From: a virus
Lineage: Duplodnaviria; Caudoviricetes
Direction: 5' to 3' (one strand)
Virus record (IMG/VR): IMGVR_UViG_3300030372_000592
Coordinates: 1 to 38,403 of that record
DNA: 38,403 bases
Under the pieces are notes generated by a model, which saw only the letters and a program-made list of their open reading frames with translations, searched no databases and was not told where the DNA came from. Below are positions 1,275 through 31,171 of the stretch, piece after piece. The stretch's first letter is position 1. Every line of letters starts with the position of its first letter. A program made the position numbers and the translations under genes.

Positions 1275-1303
1275 TTGCAAAACATACTAGTTTGTTGTAT
1301 ATT
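1275..1303 (+). promoter_or_regulatory. sigma70-type promoter, probable leaderless transcript
   Basis: TTGCAA(1275-1280)-17 nt-TATATT(1298-1303)-6 nt-ATG(1310); no SD. Confidence 0.7.
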
Positions 1304-1309
1304 GTTTAT

Positions 1310-1507
1310 ATGAAAAATTACGGAAAAAACGATGCACGTGACTATTGTGCAAACTGGAACAGTGGTGAATGCCTTGGCTGCATGATGCGTACTGACGGTA
1401 ATGTTTTAAAGATTCGTGTCGATTCAAAACTTGCAGGCAAAGATTGTATTATCAATCAAGGGTGCGACTACTTTGATATGGTAGTTGTACCTTCAATCCC
1501 TAAATAG
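1310..1507 (+). CDS. Cys-rich small hypothetical protein
   Basis: ATG 1310 preferred over TTG 1292, which lies inside the promoter; five Cys suggest metal binding. Confidence 0.75.
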   Translation: MKNYGKNDARDYCANWNSGECLGCMMRTDGNVLKIRVDSKLAGKDCIINQGCDYFDMVVVPSIPK

Positions 1508-1516
1508 AGAGAAAAT

Positions 1517-1864
1517 ATGAAGGACATAGAAGTAATAGATTATATAGAAACAAAGTATCCTGAAATGGCGAAAAGATTCAAAGAGATACTAGATGAAGAG
1601 TACAGGCTCTTTTGTCGAAAACAACATGATTACGGAAGCGACAACATAACTCTAGGAGAAGATATCAGTACCGAAGAAGGTCGCATGGTATCTTTGACTG
1701 CTTTGGTTGTTCGCATGAATGATAAGATTAATAGATTAAAAACTATTATTATCAAGAACAAAGGTCGTAACGCAGTTACACAAGAAACATATATGGATGC
1801 ATTTGTTGATTTGTCTATATATGGAATTATAGCGCAGCTAGTGGCAGAAGATAAGTGGGGTTGA
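1517..1864 (+). CDS. DUF1599 / nucleotide modification-associated domain 1 protein
   Basis: KQHDYG..N, RMNDKINRL and ET..D...DL..Y.II motifs. Confidence 0.85.
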   Translation: MKDIEVIDYIETKYPEMAKRFKEILDEEYRLFCRKQHDYGSDNITLGEDISTEEGRMVSLTALVVRMNDKINRLKTIIIKNKGRNAVTQETYMDAFVDLSIYGIIAQLVAEDKWG

Positions 1865-1938
1865 TAAAAACAATCAAGCTTAGACTAGAAGCTGTAATAA
1901 TTAAAATACTACTTAAACTACTATTTAATCGGAAGTAA
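1861..1938 (+). CDS. Putative 25 aa peptide MIKTIKLRLEAVIIKILLKLLFNRK
   Basis: TTGA overlap with the upstream stop; fills the gap exactly to the next ATG at 1941. Confidence 0.4.
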   Translation: MIKTIKLRLEAVIIKILLKLLFNRK

Positions 1939-1940
1939 TT

Positions 1941-2906
1941 ATGAAATGGAAACAAGAAGAGCTTAGTGTCTTAAACCTGTATAGAGACGGAACAAAGACA
2001 ATAGAACAAATCAGAGGTTATCTAAAAAAATCTGGATATAGAAGAACTTATAAGTCTGTAGCCAGAAAACTAGAAACCTTAAATATAAAAAAACCTTTAA
2101 GCAATTACAGTAACATTGATTTACCAAAAATATTAATTCTAGATATTGAGACCACTCCTATGGGTGTGTGGACTTGGAGTCTTGGAAAACAATATGTTGG
2201 TCATCACGCAATTATGAAAAACAAAAATGGTGCAATGATGGATTGGCATCTACTAAGTTGGTCAGCTAAGTGGTTGTATGATGGCGAAGTGATGAGTGAC
2301 GTGTTGACACCTAGAGAAGCTAGAGCTAGAAATGATAAGCGTATCATGAAGTCTGTCTGGAAGTTACTAAACGAAGCAGATATTATCATAGCTCATAATG
2401 GAGATAGGTTTGACCTTAGAAAAATAAATGCTAGATTTATAGCTAATGATATAAAAGCACCTCTACCATTTAAAACTATAGACACACTAAAACAAGCAAG
2501 AAAAGAATTTGCGTTCTCTTCTCACAAGCAAGACTTTATAACTAAATTTTTAAAGTTAGAAGAAAAGCTAGATACAGAGTTTCAATTATGGATTGACTGC
2601 ATGAGTGGAAATCAAAAAGCTTTAGATAGAATGGAAGAATACAATCGTGGAGATGTTGTAGGTCTTGAAGATATGTATCTTAAATTAAGACCATACATGA
2701 AATCTCATCCGAACATAGCTGTTATGATTGATGATGACTGCTGCACTGTTTGTGGAAGCACACAGTTAAAAGCTACTAAAAAGTTTTATTATACTGGTAG
2801 TAGTAGATATAGATTATATAGCTGCAAAAGCTGTCATTCTCCATACATTAGAAGTAAAAATAGTCAAAGCAATAAAGAAATTACAAAACGTTCTGTTTCG
2901 AGATAA
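1941..2906 (+). CDS. RNase H-fold (DEDD/DnaQ-like) 3'-5' exonuclease with C-terminal zinc ribbon
   Basis: ILDIET (ExoI), HNGDRFD (ExoII), YNRGDV (ExoIII); CTVC...CKSC. Confidence 0.88.
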   Translation: MKWKQEELSVLNLYRDGTKTIEQIRGYLKKSGYRRTYKSVARKLETLNIKKPLSNYSNIDLPKILILDIETTPMGVWTWSLGKQYVGHHAIMKNKNGAMMDWHLLSWSAKWLYDGEVMSDVLTPREARARNDKRIMKSVWKLLNEADIIIAHNGDRFDLRKINARFIANDIKAPLPFKTIDTLKQARKEFAFSSHKQDFITKFLKLEEKLDTEFQLWIDCMSGNQKALDRMEEYNRGDVVGLEDMYLKLRPYMKSHPNIAVMIDDDCCTVCGSTQLKATKKFYYTGSSRYRLYSCKSCHSPYIRSKNSQSNKEITKRSVSR

Positions 2907-2907
2907 C

Positions 2908-2936
2908 TTGACTTTTGTACACTTTTTGATTATATT
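2908..2936 (+). promoter_or_regulatory. sigma70-type promoter, probable leaderless transcript
   Basis: TTGACT(2908-2913)-17 nt-TATATT(2931-2936)-5 nt-ATG(2942); no SD. Confidence 0.75.
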
Positions 2937-2941
2937 ATAAT

Positions 2942-3706
2942 ATGATAACTAGAAAAATAAATAAAATTAATCATCCGATATATAGTAGTATAGATGAGTT
3001 TCGAAAGGATAACCCTAATTTGTTATTAGTTAATAATTGGAGGGAAGGCACCGAAGGTAGCTGGGTAGTTTCAGACGACGGACAAGTTTGTGAGGTTTTG
3101 AAACGTGGGACAATGCTCAGAAGAGCAGGTAGTAAGCAAAAAAACTATTACATTAGGGTTCCTCTCGGAACGTTTATATGCGGTGATAATATTAAAATGG
3201 AAGGTGAACCTAGAAGAAACCTTTATTCTTTTGGCTTGACTGACACTAGTGTCTATGAACACAAGGTCGAAAAGAAAAAGACCACGCAAAGAGAATTCCT
3301 TTTTGCTCAATACGTAGCAAAAGGGGAGGATGTAGTAGATGCTTTTGTAAAAGCATTTCCAACGAATAATAAATCGTACGCTGAGGGTCAAGCCAAAATA
3401 TTAATGAAGGCTAAAAGGATTCAAAACATGATTAGAGAAGAAATAGATAAAGTATTAAATGATGCAGATATAACTCCACTATATCTTTTAGAACAAATGA
3501 GAGATATTGTTGACAAGTCAGATTCTAATGATAGAGATAAAATACAGGCTTTAAAAACATTAATGCAAATTAGCGGCATGATGGACACAGAAAAGAAAAC
3601 AGAGTCTGTTGCTGTATTCCAAGGATTTACAAAAGAACAGTTAGATGCCATAGGGGGTGGTAATGTCAAGGAACTTGCGTCGGTTGAAAGAGAGATTGAA
3701 AACTAA
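2942..3706 (+). CDS. Terminase small subunit with N-terminal extension
   Basis: C-terminal half resembles TerS (FAQYVAKGEDVVDAFVKAF helix-turn-helix, DKIQALKTLMQISGM); upstream of TerL. Confidence 0.7.
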   Translation: MITRKINKINHPIYSSIDEFRKDNPNLLLVNNWREGTEGSWVVSDDGQVCEVLKRGTMLRRAGSKQKNYYIRVPLGTFICGDNIKMEGEPRRNLYSFGLTDTSVYEHKVEKKKTTQREFLFAQYVAKGEDVVDAFVKAFPTNNKSYAEGQAKILMKAKRIQNMIREEIDKVLNDADITPLYLLEQMRDIVDKSDSNDRDKIQALKTLMQISGMMDTEKKTESVAVFQGFTKEQLDAIGGGNVKELASVEREIEN

Positions 3707-3869
3707 GAATTGTTATTTTTGCTATACAAAGTTAATGAATAATGTCATAGTTATTCACGATATTGATGTTAATCAATACTTTGCTCAATGCTCTCATTGT
3801 ATGACAGTTTATAATCATGATTTTAATATTGAACATCTAGGAGTTCCTAGGCAAATTGGGATATGTTAA
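3696..3869 (+). CDS. Small zinc-finger protein
   Basis: CYFC...CSHC; start uncertain (TTG 3696 or upstream). Confidence 0.55.
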   Translation: MKTKNCYFCYTKLMNNVIVIHDIDVNQYFAQCSHCMTVYNHDFNIEHLGVPRQIGIC

Positions 3870-4228
3870 TGAGTAAAGAAAAAAATAAAATAGCCGTTTA
3901 TGGAACCCTAAGAAGAGGTGAGGGTAATTTAGGTAGAATAGAAAATACATCTTTAGTTTATCCAGGTCATCAAACATTTCCAGCTATAATACAAAACTCA
4001 AAAGGAAAAGGAACTGTGGTTGAGGTAAGAGATGTTACGGAAGAGCAGTTGATGAGATACGATATGTATGAAGGGGTTGCATCTGGACTATATAAAAGAA
4101 TAAAAACCAGTGTTGATATGCAAGACGGAACAAAAGAAGATGCGTGGGTATATGTAGCTGGAGATGAAATGATGCAAAGAAGTACTTCATTTCAAGTAAT
4201 TCAAAGCGGAGATTGGTACGATAGATAG
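3869..4228 (+). CDS. Gamma-glutamylcyclotransferase (AIG2-like/GGCT)
   Basis: AVYGTLRRG N-terminal motif, D.YEG...LY.R, AWVY; TAATG coupling. Confidence 0.9.
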   Translation: MSKEKNKIAVYGTLRRGEGNLGRIENTSLVYPGHQTFPAIIQNSKGKGTVVEVRDVTEEQLMRYDMYEGVASGLYKRIKTSVDMQDGTKEDAWVYVAGDEMMQRSTSFQVIQSGDWYDR

Positions 4229-5792
4229 TTTTAACATAAACTCAAGTGGTCAAAAAGAAAAAGACCGAGTCCTTAGCATTGTTGCAAATGATTTAATTGC
4301 ATTTGGTCAATTATTTTTGCCAGATGATTTTATGAAATCATCCCCAGCTCCATTTCATTATGAAGTAGGCAAAAAACTTTTAGACCCAAAATCAAGAAAA
4401 ATGTGTATCGTACTTCCTCGTGGTCACTCTAAGTCTACAATGGCTAAAGCAGCACTGCTGCATAAAATATATTTTAACCCACAAGGAAAAAAAGAATTTG
4501 CAGCTTGGGTATCTGAAGAACAGGGTCAAGCTGTAGACCATTTAAAATATATTAAAAACCATATGGAATATAACAACGCATTGAACTATTACTTTGGAGA
4601 TATGGTTGGTGACAAGTGGACTGAAAAAGAAATAACTACTAGTCGTGGTGATAGAATTATAGCAAAAGGTACTAGTCAAAGACTGCGTGGTAGGTCTGAA
4701 CTTGGTACTAGATATACAAAAATTATTCTTGACGACTTTGAATCAGAATTAAATACAAAAACTCCAGACAGAAGACGTGAGATAAAAGAATGGTTGATGT
4801 CTACTGTCTATCCGTCTTTAGAAGAATCAAAAGGCAACGAGGGCTCTATTTGGTTAATTGGCACTATCGTACATTACGATTCAGCATTACAGGCTATATA
4901 CGATGGATACCTCGAAGCTAAAGATAAAAAAGAAGAATACACATGGGATGTTATATTTCACAGAGTATTGGAAGATGGAAAGCCTCTTTGGGAATCTTAT
5001 TTTAATAAAAATAAAATAAATCAAATACGAAGAGACTATGAAAATGTAGGTCAGCTGCATAAGTTTGCCCAGGAGTATATGAATGATGCTAGGGACTTGG
5101 CTACTGCTAAATTTAAAATAGATAAGATACAACATCACGACTATGAACTTGTTAGCAATTCGAGTCAATGTTATCTTAAGGGGAATGAAACAGTAATACC
5201 TGTTAATGTTTATATGGGTGTAGACTTAGCTTATGAGTCAAATGCTCATAACGATTATCAAGTAATTATGGTTACTGCAGTTGACAGCGATAAGAACTTT
5301 TACGTGATTGATTACTACCATGAACACTTGCCACTTTATGAGATGCCACAAAAGATTTTTGAGCTAGCTAAGCTTTACTCTCCTATAAGGAGAGTAAACG
5401 TAGAGCATGTTGGAGCACAGGGAATTATAAAAGATTCTGTTAATCAAATTAGCGGATATGATAGAAAAATGGCTCCTGGCATAGCTAGAGGCGTTAGACC
5501 ACCACAAGGAATAAAAAAAGAAGATAGAATAGAATCATCATTATGTCCTATTGTAAACCGTGGAAAGCTTTATATAAAAAAGAACCATCAAGAACTTATA
5601 GATGAAATGTTTCACTTTCCAAAGGGAAAGCATGATGACCTGCTCGATGGTCTTTGGTATTCGATAACAAACGCCAGAGCACCACTAAGTAAAAGCTTTG
5701 ATGTTGCTAATTTTGACCTTGAAGATAGCAAGAATAAAAGAAGTAAAAAGAAGTCTTCAATAAGAAGTTGGATTACAGGGCAAAGAATTTAA
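4221..5792 (+). CDS. terL: Terminase large subunit (probable ATA start at 4221; ORF track start TTG 4317)
   Basis: Walker A PRGHSKST, Walker B IILDDFE, coupling motif IGTIVH, nuclease GVDLA and FPKGKHDDLLD; frame open from 4200. Confidence 0.95.
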   Translation: MDSFNINSSGQKEKDRVLSIVANDLIAFGQLFLPDDFMKSSPAPFHYEVGKKLLDPKSRKMCIVLPRGHSKSTMAKAALLHKIYFNPQGKKEFAAWVSEEQGQAVDHLKYIKNHMEYNNALNYYFGDMVGDKWTEKEITTSRGDRIIAKGTSQRLRGRSELGTRYTKIILDDFESELNTKTPDRRREIKEWLMSTVYPSLEESKGNEGSIWLIGTIVHYDSALQAIYDGYLEAKDKKEEYTWDVIFHRVLEDGKPLWESYFNKNKINQIRRDYENVGQLHKFAQEYMNDARDLATAKFKIDKIQHHDYELVSNSSQCYLKGNETVIPVNVYMGVDLAYESNAHNDYQVIMVTAVDSDKNFYVIDYYHEHLPLYEMPQKIFELAKLYSPIRRVNVEHVGAQGIIKDSVNQISGYDRKMAPGIARGVRPPQGIKKEDRIESSLCPIVNRGKLYIKKNHQELIDEMFHFPKGKHDDLLDGLWYSITNARAPLSKSFDVANFDLEDSKNKRSKKKSSIRSWITGQRI

Positions 5793-5801
5793 AAAAAACA
5801 C

Positions 5802-5830
5802 TTGACTTTTTAGGTGTTTTACATTATATT
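5802..5830 (+). promoter_or_regulatory. sigma70-type promoter for the morphogenesis operon
   Basis: TTGACT(5802-5807)-17 nt-TATATT(5825-5830); SD AGGAG at 5851-5855. Confidence 0.8.
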
Positions 5831-5862
5831 ATATAGTATATATATATTTAAGGAGTTCGACT

Positions 5863-7875
5863 ATTAACTACGTAGAAACTTTTGCAGAGAACGACGAAGC
5901 TCAAAAGAATAGAGATTTATGGAGAAGGTGGAGAGATGCCAGGTCTGACTGGGAAGTAGAAGCACGAGATGCTATAGACTTCTCTTTGGGGAATCATTAT
6001 TCTTCAGAAGAGTCAGATATGCTTCAATCAGTGGGGCAAGGCGATTTTATTATTGACAGGGTTTATGCTGCTGTTGACAAACTAAAATCTCTTCTTACTT
6101 CTCGTAATCCAAAATTCTCAGCAGTAGCTAGAGAAGATTCTGATTACAAACTTGCTAATGTTTGGAGAACAATACTAGAGTATGTTTGGGATGTATCAGA
6201 CTGCAACACTCATTTTAAACAAATAGTTCACGATTATTCAGTAGCTGGTCTAGGTTACTTTTACGTATACCTTGACCCAGAATCTGATTATGGTAGAGGT
6301 GATGTTAAAATTACCCATATCAATCCTTTTAGAATATACGTAGACCCAGCCTCAAGAGATAGATATTATGCAGACTCATCTGCTATGATTTTATCTACAA
6401 TACTTACAAGAGACCAATTACTTGGCTTATATCCACAACTTTCTGAAATGATTGATAGTATAGAATCGTCTAGCGACGAAGAAGACTATCCAGCATCAAA
6501 ACGTAAAAATTCATCAGCGTCATTTACACCTGATGTTACAAAAGATTACGATAGAGGCGGTTATGAAAAGTACAGGATATTAGAGAGATTTGAAAAAATT
6601 AAAGTTCCTTTTTATAGGATATTCAACAGAGAGACACAAGAAGAGAAAATAGTTGACCTTGATACTTTCCAGGGCATAGCTCAGGACAATGGTCATCTTT
6701 TAGAATCGGGACTGGTAGAAGCGGTTGAAGTTCTGCAGACACGTATTCGCCACGTAGCTACAGTCGGTCAAGTTCTTCTTTATGAACAAGTTCTAAACAC
6801 CGACATATATCCTATCGTTCCAGTCCCAAATATTTGGACTAACACTCCATATCCAAAGTCTGATGTAACAAAAGTAAAAGACTCGCAGAGATTAATTAAT
6901 AAGTTATTCTCATTAACATTGAGTCATGCTCAGGCTTCTGCTGGATTAAAGCTGTTAGTCCCAGAAGGAAGCGTGGATGACATAGGTCAGCTCGAAAGAG
7001 ATTGGGCTAATCCAAATGCTGTTATTGAGTATAATCCAGAGTTTGGAGAACCTCATTACCCAGCACCACAACCATTGGCTTCTGAATTTTATAATTTAAT
7101 TTCGAGAGTAGAGTTTTATATAGATTTAAATTTTGGTATCTCAGAGCTTATGCAAGGCTTTAAATCTGGTGCTCCAGATACAGTTAGAGGTACTTACTTA
7201 TTACAAGAAATGGGAGAGAGTAGAGGTCGCTCAAAATTGAGAGACATCGAAGGAAGCTTGGATATACTTGGTAAAGTTGTTTATAACTTTTCCAAAGGAC
7301 ATTACAAGTTTAAAAAGACTTTTAGAATTGTGCAACCTAATAATGATATTACAGAGTTTACAATAAACAATAGAATGTATGACGATAAGACGAATGAACT
7401 AATGACTATTGAAAACGATATCACATTAGGACAGCACGATATTCGGATAATATCAGGCTCAACGCTACCATCAAATAGGATGGCTGAGTACAATATGTAT
7501 TTAGATGCGTATAAATTGGGCTTGGTAGATGATGTCGAGGTTTTAAAGAAAACAGAAATCTACGACAAAGAAGGCGTATTGCAACGTAAAGGTGCTATGC
7601 AACAAATGCAAGGTTATATTAAACAACTAGAATCTGAGGTTAAGAAACTAAGTGGTGATTTACAAACTTCTGAGCGTGAAATGATAAACGCTAGAAAACA
7701 AACCATCACTCAGAAATTCAAGACTAATCTTGATACAGCCCTTAATCAAATTAAAGATAAGGAAAGAAAAAATCTCAACAAGATGGAAAATATAATTGAT
7801 AAAGCAGATTTACAGTCCAGATATGGAAGCAATGCCAACGAAGGCACGGATACAGAAGAAGGCGTTGAAGGTTAA
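5863..7875 (+). CDS. Portal protein, P22-like (probable ATT start at 5863; ORF track start TTG 5986)
   Basis: Follows TerL; YVDP, PIVP, KDSQRLIN motifs; C-terminal coiled-coil barrel. Confidence 0.9.
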   Translation: MNYVETFAENDEAQKNRDLWRRWRDARSDWEVEARDAIDFSLGNHYSSEESDMLQSVGQGDFIIDRVYAAVDKLKSLLTSRNPKFSAVAREDSDYKLANVWRTILEYVWDVSDCNTHFKQIVHDYSVAGLGYFYVYLDPESDYGRGDVKITHINPFRIYVDPASRDRYYADSSAMILSTILTRDQLLGLYPQLSEMIDSIESSSDEEDYPASKRKNSSASFTPDVTKDYDRGGYEKYRILERFEKIKVPFYRIFNRETQEEKIVDLDTFQGIAQDNGHLLESGLVEAVEVLQTRIRHVATVGQVLLYEQVLNTDIYPIVPVPNIWTNTPYPKSDVTKVKDSQRLINKLFSLTLSHAQASAGLKLLVPEGSVDDIGQLERDWANPNAVIEYNPEFGEPHYPAPQPLASEFYNLISRVEFYIDLNFGISELMQGFKSGAPDTVRGTYLLQEMGESRGRSKLRDIEGSLDILGKVVYNFSKGHYKFKKTFRIVQPNNDITEFTINNRMYDDKTNELMTIENDITLGQHDIRIISGSTLPSNRMAEYNMYLDAYKLGLVDDVEVLKKTEIYDKEGVLQRKGAMQQMQGYIKQLESEVKKLSGDLQTSEREMINARKQTITQKFKTNLDTALNQIKDKERKNLNKMENIIDKADLQSRYGSNANEGTDTEEGVEG

Positions 7876-7884
7876 CATTAAAAA

Positions 7885-7943
7885 GAGTCAAGTCTTACCT
7901 AGGAATATCGAAAGGTAGAGTCCACTTTAGAGTAAGAAGATTC
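7885..7943 (+). promoter_or_regulatory. Long imperfect hairpin with GAAA tetraloop in the scaffold leader
   Basis: Nested pairs GAGTC/GATTC, TCTTAC/GTAAGA, CTA/TAG, GGA/TCC, TATC-GAAA-GGTA; ends right before SD GGAAAGGA. Confidence 0.55.
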
Positions 7944-7954
7944 GGAAAGGAAAT

Positions 7955-8839
7955 ATGGAAAACCAAACAACACAAGAGCAAAAAGGTAAAACTTACGAGG
8001 ATAAGTTAGCTGATGACCGAAAAGGTCTGGATATAGCAATGCCAGACGTGGAAGTGGTCAGTAAGGAGATTCCAGTTGATGAAAACATGGAAGCTCAAAG
8101 CGAAGGAACAGATAGAGTTCCTAGCGAAATTACAGCAGAAGGTAATGAAGAACAAATTGAGTATGCTACTGATTGGGAGAATGAAACTAAAAAGTTTCAA
8201 TCTATGTATGATAAGCAGAAATCTGAGTATGATTCATTGCAAAAGCAAGTTAACTCCTTAGAACCATTAAAACAGTTACAATCTGTTTTAGAATCAAGAC
8301 CTGATGTAGTTCAGGCGATTCAAGAGAAATTGGAAGGTAAGCCTGCTCAACAAAACAATGAGAGTTCATCTGCACCAGAAGGTATTGATGAAGCCTCTTT
8401 TGACCCTTGGGAAGCCTATTACAAGCCTGAATCACCGTCGTATAAATTACGAGTGGCTCAGGAAAAAGCTTTGGTTCAAGAAGCTGTTTCAGAACAGATG
8501 TCTGGAATCCAAAGTCAGGTTGCTATGCAAAATCTGAAAAATGAATTGAGACAAAATTACGGCATTACAGATGATAATGAAATGGAAGACTTTATTCAGT
8601 TTGCTACAAATCCAAGAGAACAACTACCTGTTGACTTTTTGATTAATGTATTTAGACAGTATAAGAATAAAGACAATCCACAACCAATAGATTCTGAAAA
8701 TTTAGAAGCTGTAAAAAATGTTCAGTCAATGCCCAAGTCTGCTGGAGTTCTCCAAGGTGGAGACCCACAGAAAAAAAGCGAATTAGATGTTTCTTGGGAT
8801 AGGATTTTAAAGGCAGGCAACGCTGGAAGATTACTCTAA
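7955..8839 (+). CDS. Capsid scaffolding protein
   Basis: Acidic N-terminus, coiled coil, located between portal and capsid. Confidence 0.8.
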   Translation: MENQTTQEQKGKTYEDKLADDRKGLDIAMPDVEVVSKEIPVDENMEAQSEGTDRVPSEITAEGNEEQIEYATDWENETKKFQSMYDKQKSEYDSLQKQVNSLEPLKQLQSVLESRPDVVQAIQEKLEGKPAQQNNESSSAPEGIDEASFDPWEAYYKPESPSYKLRVAQEKALVQEAVSEQMSGIQSQVAMQNLKNELRQNYGITDDNEMEDFIQFATNPREQLPVDFLINVFRQYKNKDNPQPIDSENLEAVKNVQSMPKSAGVLQGGDPQKKSELDVSWDRILKAGNAGRLL

Positions 8840-8861
8840 AATAAACTAACGGAGAAATAAA

Positions 8862-10265
8862 ATGTCTGTTACACAAGGAATAAAACTCTCTAGTGACATC
8901 ACAGCAGCCGCTACTAGTGCTGGTGTGGGACAAGCTCCTGATAGAAGACGGTTATACGATTTTAGTGATAGAGTTGCTGAACTAGCTCCCGAAGAATCAC
9001 CTTTTTTTGTATACCTAAATCAGGTTGCTAAAACACCAACGGATGACTCTGTCTTCCGCTATCTAGAGAATAGGTCAAAAATTAATATGACCACTAGGAA
9101 TTTCTTACTAGCCGCTGCCGTAAATGGCGGTTCAGCTGTTTCTGCTGGAAGTGCTTACACTTTCACAGTTGATGCTGATACAGCTACTGGCGGTGTTAGC
9201 TCTGGTGGAGCTTCAGTTGACTTTTTAATTAAAGGTATGGTATTTGTTGTTAATACAACTACTGGCGCTGAAACATCAGGATACGCTCAAACAATGGTAA
9301 GAATAGAAAGTGCACCTACTGATAGTGGTACAAGCACTACATTTAGTGGTAAAATTATTGACGTATCAAACTCAAATGTTTCTGGTTATAACGTTCTAGC
9401 TGATAATGACGTATGTCAAGTTATCGGTACCGCATTCGGAGAAGGAACTGCTTCACCAGATACATTTTCAACTGAAATCGAAGATGACTTTGGATACACT
9501 CAAATCTTTAAAACATCTTGCGAACTTTCAAACACAGCTATTGCAACACGTTATCGTGGTTATGCAAATGAATTTGAAAGAATTTGGGCAACCAAACTTC
9601 GTGAGCATAAAGTAGATATTGAGCGTGCTATGTTATTTGGACAAAAAGCTCGTGTTGGCGGAGTTCAATATACTGAAGGTCTAGTAGGTCACATTGTAAA
9701 AAATGCAAACCCAACAACCGATGATAGCGCATTTTCATATTCATCTGGAACACCTTACTATCGTAGTGTAGCTCAATCTGAGTTAACATATGATAGACTG
9801 CTTTCTGACTTAGAAGTTATATTTGACCCAGCTCGTGGTGGTTCATCTGACAGATTAGTCTTAGCTTCATTACCTGTAATCACCTTCTTTAACAAGCTAG
9901 GTGATGGTGCATTTATGGATGCTTCTATGGGTTCTGCTTCTAATATGGTTAATCGCTATAACTTTGAAGAAAGAGAAGGTGCTTTTGGTCATAAGATTAT
10001 GACTATTGATACCGTTCACGGAACAATGCACTTAGTCAAAGAACCATTATTTAGAGGTCTGTCCTCTGGATTTATGTTAATGGCTGATATGAGCAAACTA
10101 CAATACCGCCCATTAGTTGGAAACGGTCTAAACAGAGATACTCATATTATCACTAACGTACAGAATTCAGATGAAGACTTACGTAAGGATATGGTTATAA
10201 CCGAAGCTGGTCTTGAAGTAACACTTCCTGAGTGTCATGCACTCTACGAAGTAGAATCAGCTTAA
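8862..10265 (+). CDS. Major capsid protein (DUF5309-like, HK97 fold)
   Basis: PEESPF, YTQIFKT, REHKVDIERAMLFG, TEAGLEV motifs; SD GGAGA; position. Confidence 0.9.
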   Translation: MSVTQGIKLSSDITAAATSAGVGQAPDRRRLYDFSDRVAELAPEESPFFVYLNQVAKTPTDDSVFRYLENRSKINMTTRNFLLAAAVNGGSAVSAGSAYTFTVDADTATGGVSSGGASVDFLIKGMVFVVNTTTGAETSGYAQTMVRIESAPTDSGTSTTFSGKIIDVSNSNVSGYNVLADNDVCQVIGTAFGEGTASPDTFSTEIEDDFGYTQIFKTSCELSNTAIATRYRGYANEFERIWATKLREHKVDIERAMLFGQKARVGGVQYTEGLVGHIVKNANPTTDDSAFSYSSGTPYYRSVAQSELTYDRLLSDLEVIFDPARGGSSDRLVLASLPVITFFNKLGDGAFMDASMGSASNMVNRYNFEEREGAFGHKIMTIDTVHGTMHLVKEPLFRGLSSGFMLMADMSKLQYRPLVGNGLNRDTHIITNVQNSDEDLRKDMVITEAGLEVTLPECHALYEVESA

Positions 10266-10276
10266 GGAGGTTTTAA

Positions 10277-10738: not shown

Positions 10739-10740
10739 TA

Positions 10741-10814
10741 AATCCGAATAAATAAGGATTGACAGTTTTGGATACTGTGGGGCTATTCGTAAAAAGGTTT
10801 AGCCCCAAACATCC
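10741..10814 (+). ncRNA. Candidate structured cis-RNA (three hairpins plus possible pseudoknot)
   Basis: AATCC/GGATT, ACAGT/ACTGT, GGGGCTA/TAGCCCC; loop GGAT (10770-10773) complementary to ATCC (10811-10814). Confidence 0.5.
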
Positions 10815-22661: not shown

Positions 22662-22852
22662 TGCCTATTGATAGAGAAAAAAGATTTTTATATAACTCTA
22701 AGGGAGTTAAAACAAAGTTAGAGCAAGGATATCCATCAAACGATTCTGGTAATGATGGAGAAGAAAGAATAGTGAAAACACCAGATGGTAAGCTTAGGCT
22801 TTATAGAAAAGAAATTGGTGCATGGCACTACTTAGAATTTACAAGGAGTTAG
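22661..22852 (+). CDS. Small hypothetical protein
   Basis: TAATG coupling; G.DG.......LY.K..G.W pattern. Confidence 0.7.
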   Translation: MPIDREKRFLYNSKGVKTKLEQGYPSNDSGNDGEERIVKTPDGKLRLYRKEIGAWHYLEFTRS

Positions 22853-22853
22853 T

Positions 22854-23606: not shown

Positions 23607-24316
23607 TGAATTTTCAAGAATTATTAGATAGAGTAGGCTTTGGTCAGTATGCAGATTATTTTGACAGCGCTCCTAAAGTTGCAGAAGCCTTTGGATTTAC
23701 TGGAGACAGAGCTCAACAGTTTGGAAAATTTTTTCAACCATTTGACCGAGATAGAGCGTTAGAAGCTTTTCAAGAAATAGGTAGTAGGGTAGGAACGAGA
23801 ACATCTAACCTAATGTCTGATGTTAGTTCTGGTCTTGGTGGTGCAATATCTGACATACTAGGTACAGGAGCTCAAACAGGATTTACTAGGTCTGGAGCTA
23901 CGCAAAGGCTAGTTTCTGGAGCAAGGGGAACAGCTGAAGATGCACTGTCTAGAGGTCGGTATCAAATAGACCAGCAAAGGGGTCAGGAAATGGCTGGATT
24001 AACTGGTTTATTCCAAAATTATTTAACAGGAACGTTTGGAAGAGCAGAGAGAATAGATGCATTAGACCCAACGCAACCAGTTTCTGGCTCTACACCACCT
24101 CTTTTAGACATTAAAATTCCTGGAACTATTGACCAACCTGGAGATGAGCCAGTTCAATTCAGAAGAGCTAGAAGTATGCTTTTTAATTATTTTTCTGCTA
24201 CAAATAGTTTTCCATCACAAGAAGAATATGATAGATTAATACAGGGATTGGGAAGTCGTTTGCTGGAAGATGGCTCTATGACTGCAGAAAGATATCTAGA
24301 AGAAACAGGAGGCTAG
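23606..24316 (+). CDS. Putative ejection / internal virion protein
   Basis: Gly/Gln-rich helical; coupled; position. Confidence 0.5.
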   Translation: MNFQELLDRVGFGQYADYFDSAPKVAEAFGFTGDRAQQFGKFFQPFDRDRALEAFQEIGSRVGTRTSNLMSDVSSGLGGAISDILGTGAQTGFTRSGATQRLVSGARGTAEDALSRGRYQIDQQRGQEMAGLTGLFQNYLTGTFGRAERIDALDPTQPVSGSTPPLLDIKIPGTIDQPGDEPVQFRRARSMLFNYFSATNSFPSQEEYDRLIQGLGSRLLEDGSMTAERYLEETGG

Positions 24317-24319
24317 TAA

Positions 24320-25990
24320 ATGGCAAATGGATTTGATTATAAATCACCTATAGATACATTGTTAAGTGTTACTCTACCTAGGTTTTTAGACAGCGAGCTC
24401 AATAGGCAAGAGAGGTCTCGTCAGTTTGACGAGAGATTAGCTTTCAATGAACAGCAAGCTTTGATTAATCAACAGCAAGCTGAAAAAAGTTTTAATTTAA
24501 GAAAAGACCAATTTGAGTTTCAACAAGGATTGCAGCAAACAAAAGAAGATGAAGAGTTTGACGAACAGTTAATGTCTACATTAGAAAATGTCAGAAGCTA
24601 CCCAGACTATGAAAAACAAGCTAAAGCAATTAAAGATAGATTGAAGACAGATAAATTTAGAACTATTTTAGATAGAGGTCTTATAACTGCTCAATCAAAT
24701 AGTCAATTTACAAAAAGAGAAATAGATAGTTTGGCTAATATTCTTGGTGATGATTTTAGAGACTATGCTGAAAACAGGCTTTCTGGTAGAGTCAATGTTA
24801 GCGATGCAGATTTTTCAAGAGTAGCTCAAAACTATATTAGCACTAAAGCGACTATAAGAGCTGAAGATAGCGCTAGATTCAGTCAGCTTTACAAAACAGC
24901 AAATCAAGCAGCTGAAGATTTAAAATCTATAATTGATTTTAAAGACGCTAAACAAATTTCAGACCCAGCTACACAAAAATACCTTACAGAAAGGTTTCCA
25001 GTTCTTTTGGGATTGAGCGATGATGAGCTTGACAAAAGATTAAAGAGCACTAGCACACTACTAAGTGAGAGTAGACAAGAGCTATATAATTTTGTAAAGA
25101 AATCAAACCTACCTACTAACGAAGCATTTAACCCAGATTTAGCCAAAAGCACTGCAGGTAGCAGTATAGGAATAGAAACCTTTCAAAGTATAATGGGTTC
25201 AACGCCCAAATATGAAATTCCAAATTATAACAGCGTTGACACTAAAAACTTAGAAGGAGGCTCTACGGTTAGGATTGGAGACACTACATCTGGATATGTT
25301 GGAGTGATTAATGACGATGGAAATATAACATTAACAGTAGATAATGCAGATGCTGAGATTATTCAAAAAGCATTAGCTGAAGATACTGGTGAAGATATAT
25401 ATGTAGACGGGAATCAAGCAACAGATGTAAGAGATTTAAGTACAGCGCCCGTAGAGTCTGTAGAAACTAAAGGCGACGATGAAGACGCAGAGAGAAGATT
25501 GGCTAATAAATATCAGACTGATGAAGAAGCTGTTCAAAAAACATTGTTAGGATTTTTAACTGGAGGAGCTGTAAATCAATCTTCAGACATACCTACAATA
25601 TCAGAAGGGGTTAAGGCTGCTAAAGATGTTTCTGAGTCTATTGTTTCTGGAGGAACAAGAGAACAAACTCAAGCAGTTAGAAACGCTAGATATGGCATAA
25701 ACAATGCTGTTAATGTTTTGTTAGCTGGAAAAAGAAAAGGTTTGCCAGAAGAAGAGGTAAGTCAGGCTAACGAAGAAATAAAATCTTTGATAACAGAAGC
25801 TGCTAAAACTGCTGAAAATTCAAATAATCCAGCAGTAAGAAGAAATTTAATATCATTAATTAACAACACACATTCAAGGGTTAATAAAGCAATAGCTAGA
25901 ATGCAAAAAACAGATGATGATATCAGCTTTTTTTATGATGATACAGTAGCGTTAATAAACGCAATGAAAGCAAAAGTATCTGGCAATTAA
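24320..25990 (+). CDS. Putative ejection / internal virion protein
   Basis: SD GGAGG; N-terminal Gln-rich coiled coil; 556 aa. Confidence 0.55.
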   Translation: MANGFDYKSPIDTLLSVTLPRFLDSELNRQERSRQFDERLAFNEQQALINQQQAEKSFNLRKDQFEFQQGLQQTKEDEEFDEQLMSTLENVRSYPDYEKQAKAIKDRLKTDKFRTILDRGLITAQSNSQFTKREIDSLANILGDDFRDYAENRLSGRVNVSDADFSRVAQNYISTKATIRAEDSARFSQLYKTANQAAEDLKSIIDFKDAKQISDPATQKYLTERFPVLLGLSDDELDKRLKSTSTLLSESRQELYNFVKKSNLPTNEAFNPDLAKSTAGSSIGIETFQSIMGSTPKYEIPNYNSVDTKNLEGGSTVRIGDTTSGYVGVINDDGNITLTVDNADAEIIQKALAEDTGEDIYVDGNQATDVRDLSTAPVESVETKGDDEDAERRLANKYQTDEEAVQKTLLGFLTGGAVNQSSDIPTISEGVKAAKDVSESIVSGGTREQTQAVRNARYGINNAVNVLLAGKRKGLPEEEVSQANEEIKSLITEAAKTAENSNNPAVRRNLISLINNTHSRVNKAIARMQKTDDDISFFYDDTVALINAMKAKVSGN

Positions 25991-26003
25991 CAAGAGGGAG
26001 TTA

Positions 26004-29000
26004 ATGAACGGACAAAATAAAATAACACTTACGCCTGAACAGGCTGACAGATTAAATCAATATTTCATAAATAGAAATGATTCTTTAAACCTATATGGAG
26101 GTATGCCTGAAACTAATATACCTGAAGAAGACTTGTCTTTTGAAGAAAGTGGTGAGAAGAGCTGGCTTTCTAATAAAGTTGATGAGTGGCTACCAAATAT
26201 AGTTAAAAAAGCTTATAATGAGTCAATACAAGGTATGGGTAAAGAGCTTATTACTGGTGAAAAAAGATTTAATTTAGATGGGTATGACCCAGGAGTAAAG
26301 GGAGATATAGGAGCAACAGTTCTATCTTTCTTTATGCCAGTTGATTTGCTTACAACAGTAGCTGGTGGTGGATTCGGTGGATTAGCTGCTAAAGCAGGTG
26401 CTAAAAATGCTCTAGGAAGAGCAGTTACAATGGGTTCAAAAAAACTCATGCAAGCTGGTATAAAAAAAGAAACTGCTAGAGAGGTAATAGAGGCTGGCTC
26501 AAAAAAAATATTAGATGAAGCTGGAACTCAAGCTGGAGCAGCGTTTACATATTCTGGCTTACAATCAGCCCTCAGTCAAAAGATGAAAGATGAGAGAGTA
26601 GACTGGTCTGAAGTGTTAACAGATGCGTCAAGAAATAGTTTGGTTGCTGGTTTAGGTGGTTCTGTACTAGGAAGAGCTAAGGGTAGAGGTCAGGGTAAAC
26701 TAGCTGGATATACTCAAGAAGCATTCACAATAGGAACATTAGACCCAGTATTAAGAGGTGAGTCTCCAACAGTCGAAGGTTATATACAATCGGTTGGATT
26801 TGCTATGGGTCTTACTGGAGCAGCTAATACAGCTAGGTCTTTAAGAAAATACAAGGATAACATTAACAAAGTTTACTTGCTAGATGAGCAATCAAAAGTA
26901 AATCCTATAAGTAAGTTAAGTGTTGAAGATAGAGCAAAGCAAGCTGAGGTTGCAAGAGAATTTACTGAAGCAAAATGGCAAAGTGAGAGAGGTGCTAAGC
27001 TTTGGTCTAAAAAAACAGGTTCGGAAACAGTCAGGATAATAAAGAGCGGAGAGGATAAGAAAGGTAAGTTTTACAAAGTTATAGATAACCAAAGCCAAAA
27101 GCAAAAGAAAATTTATAAAAATACTTTCTTTAGAAATTACCAAGAAGAAAATTTATCCAGAATAAAAACTCAAAAAAGTATAGCTAGTATAGCAAAAAAT
27201 CTAGGAATAAATCCAGAAACAGAAGCTTTTATTCTTTTAGGTAAAGCTACTTCACTATTATCAGATAGAGAACTTTTAAATTATAATCAAAAACTATTTA
27301 ATAAGTATATCAATAGAGACTTTAGAAGAGAGTTTGCAGATTACTCGGATTCAATACCGCAGCAAGATTTATTAGATTCTTGGCTCGGAACATCTATTGC
27401 TAATCTCATAAAAACAGCTCCAAAAACTTTTAAAGATAGAGGTTCTCAGGCAATAGTAAAAACTTTTTACCAGATATCAGATAACGTATCTTTGTTTGAG
27501 GCTAAGTCCAGAAAAGAAGTAATAAAGCTTAGAGAACTTTTAGGTACAAACGAAAACGAACTAAGACAAGTATTTTTAGAAGCTACTGGAAGAAAAAAAG
27601 CTACAAAGAAAAACGCTGCTAAGTTACAAGAAATAAAAAAAATATTTGACGACAGATTAGAGTATGCTAAACGTGGAAATATAGCTGCTGCTGGAAAGAT
27701 ATCAAAGTTTTTACCTCAATATTTTAGACATGATATAAAAGATTTATTGTTTGACGACTATATAAAAGTTGAGAAGGCAACAGCTTTAATGTACAAATCA
27801 GGTGAACTGCAAAAGTTTGAAAAAGATTTAATACAGACTATAGTTCTTGATAAAATGGCAAACAATAAACTTAGTGCACCTTTTAGAGAGTTAATGGATG
27901 ATATTATAAGGCAAGAACAGCAGAGAACTGGAAAAAAGATGAGTTATGCTGAAGCGTATGCTTTATTTAGAGAGGATGCACTACCCAGCAAGGTAAATCC
28001 GCACGGAAGTATAGAGAACCCTAGAAAATTTGAGATACCCACAAACTTACTAGAAACTGACCCTGTAAAGCTATTGGCTATATACGATTCAAGGCTTGGT
28101 AGGAGGGTTGAAACAGCTAGAGTTTGGGGTAATAATAATCAGTTTATAACTAAAGCCATATCAAATATTAAAAGCTCAGATGAGCAAATAAGATTAAGGG
28201 GTATGGTAGATAAAATGACTGGCTATTCCAATGTAGAAGCTTTTCAAAAAATGAATCCAAATCTTAGAAAGTTTGTTGATAACGTAATGGCTTTTGAGGC
28301 TATAACAAAAATATCTCTTGGTGATGCAACTATAAAAAATGTAGGTCAGACTCTCATATCTACAATGCCTATGCTTGGAATGATGAGAACTGGAAAAGCT
28401 TTTATAAAGATAACAACAGATAAAGAGTTTAGAGATTCACTTCCATATGTATATCAGGATTTTATAAGAGAGATGGTTGGAAGTGTGGGTTCTAGTGGTG
28501 GTAAATTTGATATGCTTGGAGCAGCTCAAATAGCCTCTAAGCTTGGATTTGAGCAAGCAAATAAATTTAACGCTTTATTATCTGCTGCTACTGCAAAACT
28601 AGCAATAGATGATTACATAAAAATGTACAAAAAAAATCCAGATGGGGTTAAGGGTAGATATGCAAAAGAAAAGCTTAAATCATTTTTTAGTCTAGATGTA
28701 GATAAAATTGATTCTTTAGATAACAATAAAATACAGGGTGCTATTAGTGCATTCTCAAAACGGTCTCAGGTTCAAAGAGATTTTTTAAGAGAACAAGACT
28801 GGCTTAGTAAGCCTGAAGTAAGACCTTTTGTACTTTTCAAAAGTTTTGGTCTCAAACAAGCACAGCTAATGACAGAATCAATAAAAGAAGAGTTAAGGCT
28901 TGGTAATCCTATGATTGTAGCAAGGATGGCTATTGGCGGATATGCTGGCTCTCAGTTAGTTGGAGCAGGATTAGATTTAATTAGCAGAGTAACCTCAGGT

Positions 29001-29567
29001 AGATGGAACTACGATGATAAAGACCCGATACCAAATCAAATAGCTGAAGGTATAGCAACCATAGGAGCATTTGGTATGTTGTCAGATTTTATGGCTGCTG
29101 AAGATAAATTTAATGCTTTATCGTTTGCTGTAAAGCCAGTGCTATATGATGATTTAGTTAGAGCGGTAGGTAGTTTTCAAGAGTTAACTAAAAGTTTTGA
29201 TGAGTTTGGTTACAACTCAATAGCCGTAAGAAGAGCAACTCATAAAGCATCAAGAATATTTGGAAGTAATGCTAGAAGATTATCTGAAAGATTTATTGCA
29301 ACTGAAGCTCAAAAAAGACAGAGAACTCAAGGAGAAAAGCAGAGAGTTGTTGACAAGATGCATAGGTTTATGATGGCTGGTAATCAAAAATTAGTTATTG
29401 AAAATCTTAAAAGATGGAACAATCTAAATCCATCTAATCCAATCAGTATGAACGATGTAAATTACGAGACTATAGCTACAGCAGCGTTAAGAAAAAATAT
29501 GAAAATTAATACTGAAGACTTAACACCTGAAGAGTTAGAGATATACAAAAGAATAATGAGAAGGTAA
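26004..29567 (+). CDS. Large internal virion / DNA ejection protein
   Basis: 1187 aa helical; Gly/Ala-rich segments; last and largest of the size-ordered series, as for T7 gp16. Confidence 0.6.
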   Translation: MNGQNKITLTPEQADRLNQYFINRNDSLNLYGGMPETNIPEEDLSFEESGEKSWLSNKVDEWLPNIVKKAYNESIQGMGKELITGEKRFNLDGYDPGVKGDIGATVLSFFMPVDLLTTVAGGGFGGLAAKAGAKNALGRAVTMGSKKLMQAGIKKETAREVIEAGSKKILDEAGTQAGAAFTYSGLQSALSQKMKDERVDWSEVLTDASRNSLVAGLGGSVLGRAKGRGQGKLAGYTQEAFTIGTLDPVLRGESPTVEGYIQSVGFAMGLTGAANTARSLRKYKDNINKVYLLDEQSKVNPISKLSVEDRAKQAEVAREFTEAKWQSERGAKLWSKKTGSETVRIIKSGEDKKGKFYKVIDNQSQKQKKIYKNTFFRNYQEENLSRIKTQKSIASIAKNLGINPETEAFILLGKATSLLSDRELLNYNQKLFNKYINRDFRREFADYSDSIPQQDLLDSWLGTSIANLIKTAPKTFKDRGSQAIVKTFYQISDNVSLFEAKSRKEVIKLRELLGTNENELRQVFLEATGRKKATKKNAAKLQEIKKIFDDRLEYAKRGNIAAAGKISKFLPQYFRHDIKDLLFDDYIKVEKATALMYKSGELQKFEKDLIQTIVLDKMANNKLSAPFRELMDDIIRQEQQRTGKKMSYAEAYALFREDALPSKVNPHGSIENPRKFEIPTNLLETDPVKLLAIYDSRLGRRVETARVWGNNNQFITKAISNIKSSDEQIRLRGMVDKMTGYSNVEAFQKMNPNLRKFVDNVMAFEAITKISLGDATIKNVGQTLISTMPMLGMMRTGKAFIKITTDKEFRDSLPYVYQDFIREMVGSVGSSGGKFDMLGAAQIASKLGFEQANKFNALLSAATAKLAIDDYIKMYKKNPDGVKGRYAKEKLKSFFSLDVDKIDSLDNNKIQGAISAFSKRSQVQRDFLREQDWLSKPEVRPFVLFKSFGLKQAQLMTESIKEELRLGNPMIVARMAIGGYAGSQLVGAGLDLISRVTSGRWNYDDKDPIPNQIAEGIATIGAFGMLSDFMAAEDKFNALSFAVKPVLYDDLVRAVGSFQELTKSFDEFGYNSIAVRRATHKASRIFGSNARRLSERFIATEAQKRQRTQGEKQRVVDKMHRFMMAGNQKLVIENLKRWNNLNPSNPISMNDVNYETIATAALRKNMKINTEDLTPEELEIYKRIMRR

Positions 29568-29809
29568 TGGCTAGAAAATTTAAACCAGTAAAGAAAACAA
29601 GGAGAGGAACTCCGTTAAAATACGTGAGGGGTTCAAAGAATCCATCAGCTAGAGAGGCTGAAATACGAAGAACAAGAGAGTTATATAGGATGGGAAAGCT
29701 AACACCAGCTATGATGGATAGAATATCAAAACTAAGGAGTGAAAGTGCCACGAAAAAAAGCAAGCCCAAGAAAAAAAGCAAGTCCAAAAAGAAAAACATC
29801 AGGGGGTAA
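29567..29809 (+). CDS. Highly basic small protein
   Basis: Lys/Arg-rich; G.P.KY..G motif; TAATG coupling. Confidence 0.7.
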   Translation: MARKFKPVKKTRRGTPLKYVRGSKNPSAREAEIRRTRELYRMGKLTPAMMDRISKLRSESATKKSKPKKKSKSKKKNIRG

Positions 29810-30053
29810 AGCAGCTGTATTAGCTAAGTACTCTAAGAGCTCTGGTATATCTAAGGGTACGTTATCTAAGGTCTACTCTAGAGGGTTGGGAGCCTACTAT
29901 TCGAGCGGTTCGAGACCTGGAACTAGTGCTCATGCATGGGCAGCTGGTAGAGTAAGAAGTTTTGCAACAGGAAAAGGTGGAGCTAGAAAAGCTGACGCTG
30001 ATTTAATTAGAGGTGGTAAGAAAAGAAAAACCACTAGAAAGAAGAGGAAGTAA
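29739..30053 (+). CDS. Basic protein, DUF5824-like
   Basis: VYSRGLGAY.SSGSRP...AWA..RV.SF motif; start 29739 or 29745. Confidence 0.7.
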   Translation: MKVPRKKASPRKKASPKRKTSGGKAAVLAKYSKSSGISKGTLSKVYSRGLGAYYSSGSRPGTSAHAWAAGRVRSFATGKGGARKADADLIRGGKKRKTTRKKRK

Positions 30054-30054
30054 T

Positions 30055-30174
30055 ATGCCTGGAAGACATAGTAAAAAGAAAAAAGCAAATGGATTAACGG
30101 CTAAGCAGAGAACATTACCTAAGAAATTACAGCAAAAGATTTTAAAATCTAAAGCTAGAAGAAAGAAAAGATAA
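30055..30174 (+). CDS. 39 aa basic peptide (not in ORF track)
   Basis: MPGRHSKKKKANGLTAKQRTLPKKLQQKILKSKARRKKR; TAATG coupling. Confidence 0.7.
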   Translation: MPGRHSKKKKANGLTAKQRTLPKKLQQKILKSKARRKKR

Positions 30175-30470
30175 TGCCTGCTAAGAAGAAGAGAGACTCA
30201 CGACTAGCTAGAGCTGGTGTATCTGGTTTTAATAAGCCAAAGAGAACACCAAGTCATCCTAAGAAGAGCCATATTGTGGTAGCTAAAGTCGGAGATAAAA
30301 TTAAAACTATTAGATTCGGACAGCAAGGAGCGAAGACTGCTGGTAAACCTAAAGCTGGAGAATCTCGTGCAACTAAAATGAAACGCAAGTCGTTTAAAGC
30401 AAGACATAGAAAGAATATTGCTAAAGGAAAAATGAGCGCAGCTTATTGGGCTAATAGGGTCAAGTGGTAG
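30174..30470 (+). CDS. Basic phage protein
   Basis: KTIRFGQQG, RKSFKARH, SAAYWA..W motifs. Confidence 0.8.
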   Translation: MPAKKKRDSRLARAGVSGFNKPKRTPSHPKKSHIVVAKVGDKIKTIRFGQQGAKTAGKPKAGESRATKMKRKSFKARHRKNIAKGKMSAAYWANRVKW

Positions 30471-30599
30471 ATGCCAAATAAAAAAGCCAAAGAAAGAAAG
30501 CGTAGAAAAAGAAAACTTGCGATTGAGAATAAATCTATTAAGAGATTAATAAAAAAGAAAAAGAAAGAACAAAGAGATGAACAACAAATCTATAGATGA
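30471..30599 (+). CDS. 42 aa basic peptide (not in ORF track)
   Basis: MPNKKAKERKRRKRKLAIENKSIKRLIKKKKKEQRDEQQIYR; abuts the previous stop. Confidence 0.65.
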   Translation: MPNKKAKERKRRKRKLAIENKSIKRLIKKKKKEQRDEQQIYR

Positions 30600-30936
30600 T
30601 ATAATGAGAGAGGCTAGCTTAGCTGAATTTATTTCATCTGCAACAGCAGATAATACAAATGTTGATGTTGGTAATCCAACCATAAAGCCATCTAACATAG
30701 GTACGATGGATATAAGCACCTTAATGGAGTTATTAAAAATGGTTGAACCAATGCAACAAAAAGATATGAGTACGTATGGAGGTGGTAGCGTTGGAGTAGT
30801 TGATAGTCCTATGACTATGCAAATGCTAATGAGAACACAAGAGCCAGTACCTCAAGATACTTCTGGAGTAGGTAGAATGGATATAAATACTCTTATGGAA
30901 ATATTAAGAATGCAGGAGCCTGTTGCTCCTAGATAA
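30577..30936 (+). CDS. Met-rich acidic protein with internal repeat
   Basis: GTMDISTLMELLKMVEP / GRMDINTLMEILRMQEP. Confidence 0.7.
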   Translation: MNNKSIDDIMREASLAEFISSATADNTNVDVGNPTIKPSNIGTMDISTLMELLKMVEPMQQKDMSTYGGGSVGVVDSPMTMQMLMRTQEPVPQDTSGVGRMDINTLMEILRMQEPVAPR

Positions 30937-30942
30937 AGTTTA

Positions 30943-30973
30943 GGGGTGCAGCAAGCAGTAAAAACTACACCCC
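30943..30973. terminator. Stem-loop between convergent operons
   Basis: GGGGTGCAG / CTACACCCC, fully paired (one G-U) on the minus strand. Confidence 0.55.
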
Positions 30974-30994
30974 ACTTCACAGCCGAGGATAAAA

Positions 30995-31171
30995 TTATTT
31001 TTTATTTAATCTTTTAATCTTTTTCTCTCTCTCCCTCCTGAGCTGGGAGGGTTTAGTGTAAAAGCGACGCTCTTCCAGCTCTTCTTTAATACCAACTTCT
31101 CTTACCTTCTTTTTGAACTCAGTAATCATTTTCTGAACTGTTTTATTTTTAGTCTTCTTCACTATTACCAT
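30995..31171 (-). CDS. rpsU: Phage-encoded 30S ribosomal protein bS21 (not in ORF track, 58 aa)
   Basis: MVIVKKTKNKTVQKMITEFKKKVREVGIKEELEERRFYTKPSQLRREREKKIKRLNKK matches the bS21 signature FK.K....GI..E...R.FY.KPS..RR. Confidence 0.9.
   Translation of the reverse strand: MVIVKKTKNKTVQKMITEFKKKVREVGIKEELEERRFYTKPSQLRREREKKIKRLNKK

Follow-up and report, generated by a model that had tools for sequence, protein, structure and literature searches.

Does the uncultured podovirus-like phage represented by IMG/VR record IMGVR_UViG_3300030372_000592 set the output of its head genes at the ribosome, and does its own copy of the ribosomal protein bS21 take part? The window, the whole stretch of DNA analysed here (38,403 nt, positions 1 to 38,403 of that record), is a 38.4 kb fragment of this phage. 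A rightward operon of late genes, comprising terS, terL and genes for a P22-like portal, a putative scaffold and an SU10-like capsid protein followed by tail and lysis genes, converges in it on a leftward operon of amidoligase, exonuclease, Sak, RusA-like resolvase and DnaB genes with bS21 at its end. The initial annotation had proposed that phage bS21 enters host ribosomes and sets the timing and stoichiometry of late proteins through ATT, ATC or ATA (ATH) start codons, a leaderless start and a hairpin-led start. We confirmed in the sequence each graded signal listed for the packaging and head genes, among them the terL ATA, the portal ATT and the hairpin before the scaffold gene, and the existence of graded, conserved initiation signals on these genes is supported. 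Their coupling to bS21 did not survive comparison with relatives. Two signals, the portal start and an RNA motif in the scaffold leader, are conserved deeply and independently of bS21, and the motif covaries.

The portal gene shows the first of these signals.

5802..5865, + strand: promoter-like site, short leader, AAGGAG Shine-Dalgarno (SD) sequence and ATT start of the portal gene
5863..7875, + strand: P22-like portal protein

The ATT at 5863 lies 7 nt downstream of AAGGAG and behind a promoter-like site of the gene's own (5802–5830), and the Pfam match of the protein begins at residue 18, ahead of the first in-frame ATG. Among 77 distinct portal start contexts, taken at 58% identity or above, 63 had an ATH codon (37 ATT, 22 ATC and 4 ATA) 5–8 nt from the SD sequence, and the remaining 14 had an ATG at 3–4 nt, roughly a codon 5' of where the ATH lies. 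An ATG at 5–8 nt was present in none of the 77, though it is one substitution away, and the third base of the codon switched among T, C and A, with G in 0 of the 63 well-spaced contexts. The ATH class was conserved in portals down to 64% identity, with no canonical alternative at the SD distance, and a far outgroup (∼52% portal identity) had mostly ATG. A start codon placed too close to the SD sequence initiates weakly. The short-spaced ATG had at least two origins in the portal tree (51 rows), a count used here in preference to the four suggested by the TerL tree, and the capsid genes of five genomes with this ATG start at an ATG 7–9 nt from their SD sequences. We infer that the ATH codon is the portal start and that its output is weak; the pattern suggests selection against efficient initiation on a 12-copy portal protein whose gene has its own promoter. 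This start misleads gene callers: in public gene calls, portals of this family are anywhere between 514 and 702 aa long, as would fit a missed ATH codon.

Two other readings of the portal codon bear on this suggestion. The ATH starts would be neutral if the host ribosome were poor at start-codon discrimination, for which there is room, as the host and its IF3 lie outside the comparison; however, an ATH start was required by just two of the 57 window genes examined (terL and portal), and T, C and A interchange with G absent in 63 of 63 well-spaced portal contexts, making neutrality very unlikely. Alternatively, the codon could be a sensor rather than a fixed throttle, portal synthesis following host IF3 level, ppGpp, nutrients or temperature. 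The depth to which the ATH class is conserved is in keeping with sensing, and excerpts of one source report that nutrient limitation, ppGpp and excess IF3 selectively affect AUU/AUA mRNAs in E. coli extracts (PMC5499595), but lineages with a short-spaced ATG in place of ATH persist although such sensing would be lost in them. We therefore regard a sensor as unlikely, and selection for a weak portal start as the better account.

The second signal precedes the scaffold gene.

7885..7943, + strand: scaffold-leader RNA motif, with a basal stem containing G.U and U-A pairs, a 3x1 internal loop and a variable upper stem
7902..7923, + strand: the internal-loop motif a second time, in inverted orientation within the upper hairpin; missing by deletion from some relatives
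7955..8839, + strand: putative scaffold protein, acidic, with an all-helical model and an invariant KFQSMYD stretch
8862..10265, + strand: major capsid protein (SU10-like), ATG with an SD sequence at 7 nt

In the window, the base of the stem lies 11 nt 5' of the scaffold ATG, and the hairpin at 7885–7943 considered in this sequence alone gave a z of −2.3, with the SD sequence outside the stem. The consensus consists of a short basal stem pairing R-G-U-Y with R-A-U-Y, then three unpaired bases facing a single A, and an upper stem free in length and sequence; minimal natural forms have ∼4+4 base pairs, and long leaders, the window's included, carry the second inverted loop copy. Of 85 distinct portal-scaffold junctions, 84 carried the motif, at portal identities down to 48% and with a deletion in the one miss, although this count is generous, with anchors set by the pattern and ties broken by pairing. 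Across these junctions the scaffold ATG follows the 3' end of the motif by 9–21 nt, the SD sequence lying just outside, and in outer clades the motif often overlaps the 3' end of the portal coding sequence.

In a MAFFT alignment of 31 leaders, from which four misaligned outer leaders were excluded, 98.9% of 453 cells were paired, against 40–51% in slid-partner controls. Compensatory changes occurred in 10 of 15 motif pairs (92 cells vs. 29 in shuffles), counts that are inflated by the relatedness of the leaders. A second sample, partially overlapping with the first, was drawn via the scaffold peptide, which we estimate to occur in ∼1100 stored IMG/VR stretches; 120 loci, 13 of them unusable, gave 94 distinct leaders. 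Fifty-seven of these were canonical, 32 had a U.C-mismatch variant and five had neither, compared to 0–1 in each of 10 shuffles, in classes that were widened after a strict rule had given 37 of 94. Searched against 53 sources, a covariance model returned eight matches at E<0.001; no two shared a genome, and all lay at the scaffold leader wherever coordinates were at hand, while the covariance models of Rfam 15 had no match in the window and 10 related loci. Among the contigs of four RNA runs (of 14), one spans the scaffold leader (7699–8945). Neither an ATH portal start nor this motif was described in the titles and abstract openings searched, which exclude most subscription journals and the supplements of RNA-motif surveys, and both signals are apparently undescribed.

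Three other candidates at these positions were rejected. In a kink-turn, tandem G.A and A.G pairs follow a bulge of 3 nt, whereas the loop here is 3x1 and followed by Watson-Crick pairs. An intrinsic terminator would require a U tract, in place of which a purine-rich SD region follows the stem, and the site was absent from the matches of a terminator scan. A further sequence resembling the motif, spanning the portal start from 5853 on, folds in few relatives only and overlaps conserved codons. Separately, one outer clade (L376, L379, L382 and L385) has an additional hairpin between the portal stop and the scaffold-leader motif.

Whether these signals depend on bS21 could be read from its distribution.

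30995..31171, − strand: bS21, PF01165 match; the family can do without it, and the start signals are not linked to it

As the initial annotation had stated, the phage carries its own bS21 on the opposite strand; it matches PF01165 at 30.9 bits (curated cut-off 27) as well as PHROG 21469, and is the final gene of the leftward operon, 3' of DnaB and a putative metalloprotease. Searches of 100 related virus records found bS21 in 9 of 50 and 12 of 50, and in a TerL tree of 55 rows, from which G069 (partial TerL) was excluded, it was restricted to one branch of 18 rows. Outside this branch, 44 of 46 loci have dnaB directly next to the final late gene, leaving no room (the other two end too soon), and bS21 is therefore truly absent there. 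Within the branch, G003, G004, G017 and G019 have kept DnaB and the adjoining late genes across a contiguous junction, with bS21 present only as a remnant whose 5' half is deleted and whose remainder is frameshifted or interrupted by stops. Together with G002, whose contig lacks the dnaB junction, they form a single clade inside the bS21-positive group (support 98/94), in which two sub-lineages differ by 30–33% at terL fourfold sites. All five genomes retain the terL ATA, the portal ATT and the terS-adjacent promoter.

A portal ATH start was present in 13 of 13 units with intact bS21 (G013, an 80 kb record with two related phage halves, entered as two units), in all five genomes of the remnant clade (4/4 with decayed bS21) and in 17 of the 35 outer genomes that never had bS21. 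For the portal, these counts give the comparative half of what the initial annotation itself had named as refuting its proposal, ATH starts equally present in relatives lacking bS21. Leaderless-type promoter-ATG junctions numbered 0–3 per genome in bS21-positive, remnant and bS21-negative groups alike (27 genomes scanned). In favor of control through bS21, every unit with an intact gene has an ATH portal start, the branch on which bS21 appears is also that on which the terL ATA and the short terS leader with its terS-proximal promoter arose, and a phage bS21 can enter E. coli ribosomes, according to excerpts of PMC6375957. However, the shared origin of bS21 and these two signals counts as a single event, both signals outlast bS21, as does the portal ATH start, and the portal ATH and the scaffold motif are older than bS21. 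ATH and leaderless starts are not confined to bS21-bearing relatives, and a link to bS21 is not supported. The comparison largely refutes the bS21 model, which we consider extremely unlikely, although bS21 may have a modest modulating effect. The natural bS21-loss clade (L224–L227: G004, G003, G017 and G019) is useful for asking what role a phage bS21 has.

The bS21 gene has features of its own. At codons 41–50 (window 31022–31051, − strand), synonymous sites are frozen, with 8 of 10 codons identical across 16 distinct genes, compared to 6 of 18 invariant-residue codons elsewhere in the gene. These codons form a hairpin, CCCTCC/GGAGGG, accompanied by a purine tract and an AGGAGG that resembles an SD sequence, and a similar hairpin persists in the bS21 remnants; it is possibly a terminator for the converging late transcript or an SD element without a start. 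In an intermediate clade, bS21 is longer (78–86 aa; L334/G058, L327/G061 and L206/G023) and its 3' half has a different G+C hairpin, which in G058 is followed by a T run on the late strand, making it likely that a late terminator is embedded in bS21.

The terminase genes carry the remaining unusual starts.

2908..2944, + strand: promoter-like site directly adjoining the ATG of terS; the leader is predicted to be absent or very short
2942..3706, + strand: terminase small subunit (terS)
4208..4228, + strand: SD sequence and ATA start of terL, overlapping the stop codon of the GGACT gene
4221..5792, + strand: terminase large subunit (terL)

The terL frame has no ATG, GTG or TTG ahead of codon 33. 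The ATA at 4221 has GGAG 9 nt upstream and overlaps the stop codon of a gamma-glutamyl cyclotransferase (GGACT) gene (3869–4228) directly 5' of terL. Given that 16 TerL homologues have invariant residues 5' of the first terL ATG, and that the portal Pfam match likewise begins before the first ATG, both N-termini are coding. The ATA was present in 41 of 41 related contexts, as the sole start codon shared by all of them, and we consider it the likely start of terL. A conserved ATH without canonical alternative holds only partly for this gene: in 29 of the 41 contexts there is also an in-frame ATG or GTG five codons upstream, and the ATA is perhaps not the start everywhere. This upstream codon falls on a synonymous site of the overlapping gene, where the window has GCG. 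Recoding of ATA as Met was rejected, as internal ATA codons align to Ile, Val or Leu and are read as Ile; a +1 frameshift joining GGACT to TerL was thought unlikely, as outgroup TerL genes have ATG or CTG at the same position. An ATT at 25986 was likewise rejected as a third ATH start, with an ATG and SD sequence 18 nt downstream (26004) and AAT in the sole usable relative.

The terS ATG (2942) sits 5 nt past TTGACT-N17-TATATT (2908–2936) and has no SD sequence, which agrees with the leaderless start that the initial annotation had assigned; given that the distance from the −10 box to the ATG varies from 5 to ∼14 nt across relatives, strict leaderlessness is not conserved. The window holds no excess of promoter-like sites (69 vs. 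73.7 in shuffles), and since the scan alone is at chance level, the promoters rest on their conservation in relatives. Other start signals were recovered as first described or in part. TAATG coupling of the tail genes was found at 11 of 41 late-gene junctions. ATG with an SD sequence was confirmed for the capsid gene and the next one, and the label "decoration" given to such genes has no family match behind it.

Given that the loop geometry of the scaffold-leader motif is conserved, its upper stem is free and its place behind the ribosome site of one gene is fixed, the motif has the properties expected of a protein-binding translational operator. Translational autoregulation of the P22 scaffolding protein (gp8) is said to have been known genetically since the work of Wyckoff and Casjens in 1985. 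Excerpts of two later sources describe the P22 scaffold as translationally autoregulated and implicate its N-terminus in repression by free scaffold (PMC5529062; 10.1101/2022.12.13.520362). The locus studied here resembles that of P22 in having the gene order portal-scaffold-coat, a portal of the P22 type and, at the start of the scaffold gene, a candidate control point. Because free scaffold represses scaffold translation in P22, which shares this gene order and portal family, we infer that the most likely ligand of the motif is the downstream product, the putative scaffold. The two loci also differ: covariation defines the RNA element of the present family, whose regulatory role is predicted, whereas in P22 the regulation is shown and the excerpted sources name no RNA site.

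Homology of the scaffold protein to P22 gp8 was not detected, with no match among cultured phages and no PDB sequence match at E≤1. The window protein had no PHROG match, and 3 of 26 family members matched PHROG 1879 weakly (E 0.004). Its gene position, its acidity and a helical structure model (mean predicted local distance difference test score of 64) would fit a scaffold protein, and the invariant KFQSMYD stretch opens a long predicted helix. The two-fold loop arrangement of the long leaders would suit a dimer.

Alternatively, though rather improbably, the leader RNA may serve in message processing or stability, or its binding partner may be capsid, portal, TerS or a ribosomal protein of the host; the scaffold-capsid message would then outlast the portal part. 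Its position at the border between low-copy and high-copy genes would suit such a role, as would the unpaired SD sequence in the leader folds and the acidic scaffold protein. However, the minimal motif of ∼4+4 base pairs is too short for RNase III, which needs a longer stem, and no U tract follows the stem; conservation of the G.U, the U-A and the loop geometry while stem length varies freely fits a protein-binding site.

We regard it as somewhat probable that control is exerted without bS21, by weak portal and terL starts and by a scaffold-leader operator bound by free scaffold. The portal gene has its own promoter-like site and a good SD sequence, and its output would be held down at the start codon by the discrimination of the host ribosome against ATH; in lineages with ATG, a codon too close to the SD sequence would have the same weakening effect. 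TerL would be made by reinitiation beneath the upstream stop codon. The scaffold leader would display one or two G.U-flanked 3x1 internal loops directly behind the ribosome site, and free scaffold protein bound to this RNA would block 30S entry while scaffold exceeds capsid protein, thereby repressing its own translation. In this explanation bS21 is an auxiliary gene independent of the signals, with a single gain, in one branch, and a single loss.

Several points weigh against this explanation, in addition to the qualifications attached to the motif counts, the alternative terL codons and the common branch of bS21 and the terminase signals. The SD sequence lies outside the stem in most folds. 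The scaffold protein has a strongly acidic composition, with a net charge of −15 to −31 in relatives, which is atypical for an RNA binder, and its label rests mostly on gene position. AUU and AUA starts are not always weak, so that the size of the portal effect may vary: in excerpts of PMC5499595, they reach 0.5–0.95 of AUG output in vitro in an optimised context and infC is well expressed, while in one phage gene AUA, AUU or AUC efficiency is as low as 5–7.5% of AUG.

The signals can also be placed beside other known systems, as far as the cited excerpts describe them. Similar to infC-type AUU/AUC starts read against IF3 (PMC5499595), the portal combines a non-canonical codon with an SD sequence and conserves it across a lineage; unlike in infC, the genes that carry the codon here encode phage portal and terminase and form no feedback loop, and ATT, ATC and ATA interchange with one another and have a short-spaced ATG as an alternative. 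The overlap of the terL start with an upstream stop codon resembles terL coupling in SPP1, proposed to set protein ratios, although SPP1 terL uses AUG without a ribosome-binding site (PMC6316719) and terL here has ATA with GGAG. As in the bS21 phages of Chen et al. (2022; PMC9723584) and Mizuno et al. (2019; PMC6375957), bS21 is encoded opposite the structural genes. Those of Chen et al. are myoviruses of 293–331 kb with predicted Bacteroidetes hosts and bS21 inside the TerL-portal-capsid cluster, in clades where a C-terminal aromatic residue (Tyr54 equivalent) masks the anti-SD (PMC9723584). In contrast, the present genome has ∼46–48 kb and uses SD sequences throughout, bS21 has been lost within the family, and the gene lies after dnaB, ∼20 kb from the head genes, thus falling outside clades defined by bS21 within about five genes of TerL, portal and capsid and by a ∼300 kb genome. 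The bS21 of the window has no aromatic residue past position 38, as read without an alignment to the Flavobacterium protein.

Near-complete relatives in the bS21 branch have 46–48 kb, and ∼8–10 kb of early region is absent from the window. Its TerL has a best identity of 26% to cultured phages, among which bS21 had no match. A species-genome scan for the host returned a single short contig in a metagenome-assembled genome, which was not accepted as host. No sigma factor or RNA polymerase was found among 43 extra open reading frames (ORFs) of three complete relatives, most of which had no match of any kind. At the start of the late operon there is one further promoter-like site.

1275..1312, + strand: promoter-like site of the first rightward gene, 6 nt ahead of its ATG; leaderless by prediction

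A leftward promoter-like site (1248–1220) points away from the late promoter. It lies within ∼850 bp without long ORFs (420–1270) that possibly represent an origin or genome end, and GTCTCG repeats occur near 409–512. The end of the late operon (29567–30470) holds a series of short, Lys/Arg-rich and very basic ORFs that match PHROGs of unknown function, and the family of the last late gene (window 30577–30936; L307:6692–8961) has several tandem paralogues in relatives. The early region encodes an amidoligase (window 37621–38403) and a glutamine amidotransferase (L307:17871–19034).

In this family at least, the clade that lost bS21 naturally speaks cleanly against a need for phage bS21 in unusual phage start signals. 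More tentatively, and at less than an even chance, a large uncultured phage family meters head assembly at the ribosome through a two-fold symmetric operator read by a scaffold dimer via the KFQSMYD helix, together with a portal start kept weak by either of two interchangeable means. Hundreds of natural motif variants, with minimal forms of ∼25 nt, offer direct access to the question of how a scaffold may recognise the message that encodes it. If this is true, the leader would represent a structurally defined operator for scaffold autoregulation, and the portal would be an essential virion gene on which efficient initiation is selected against.

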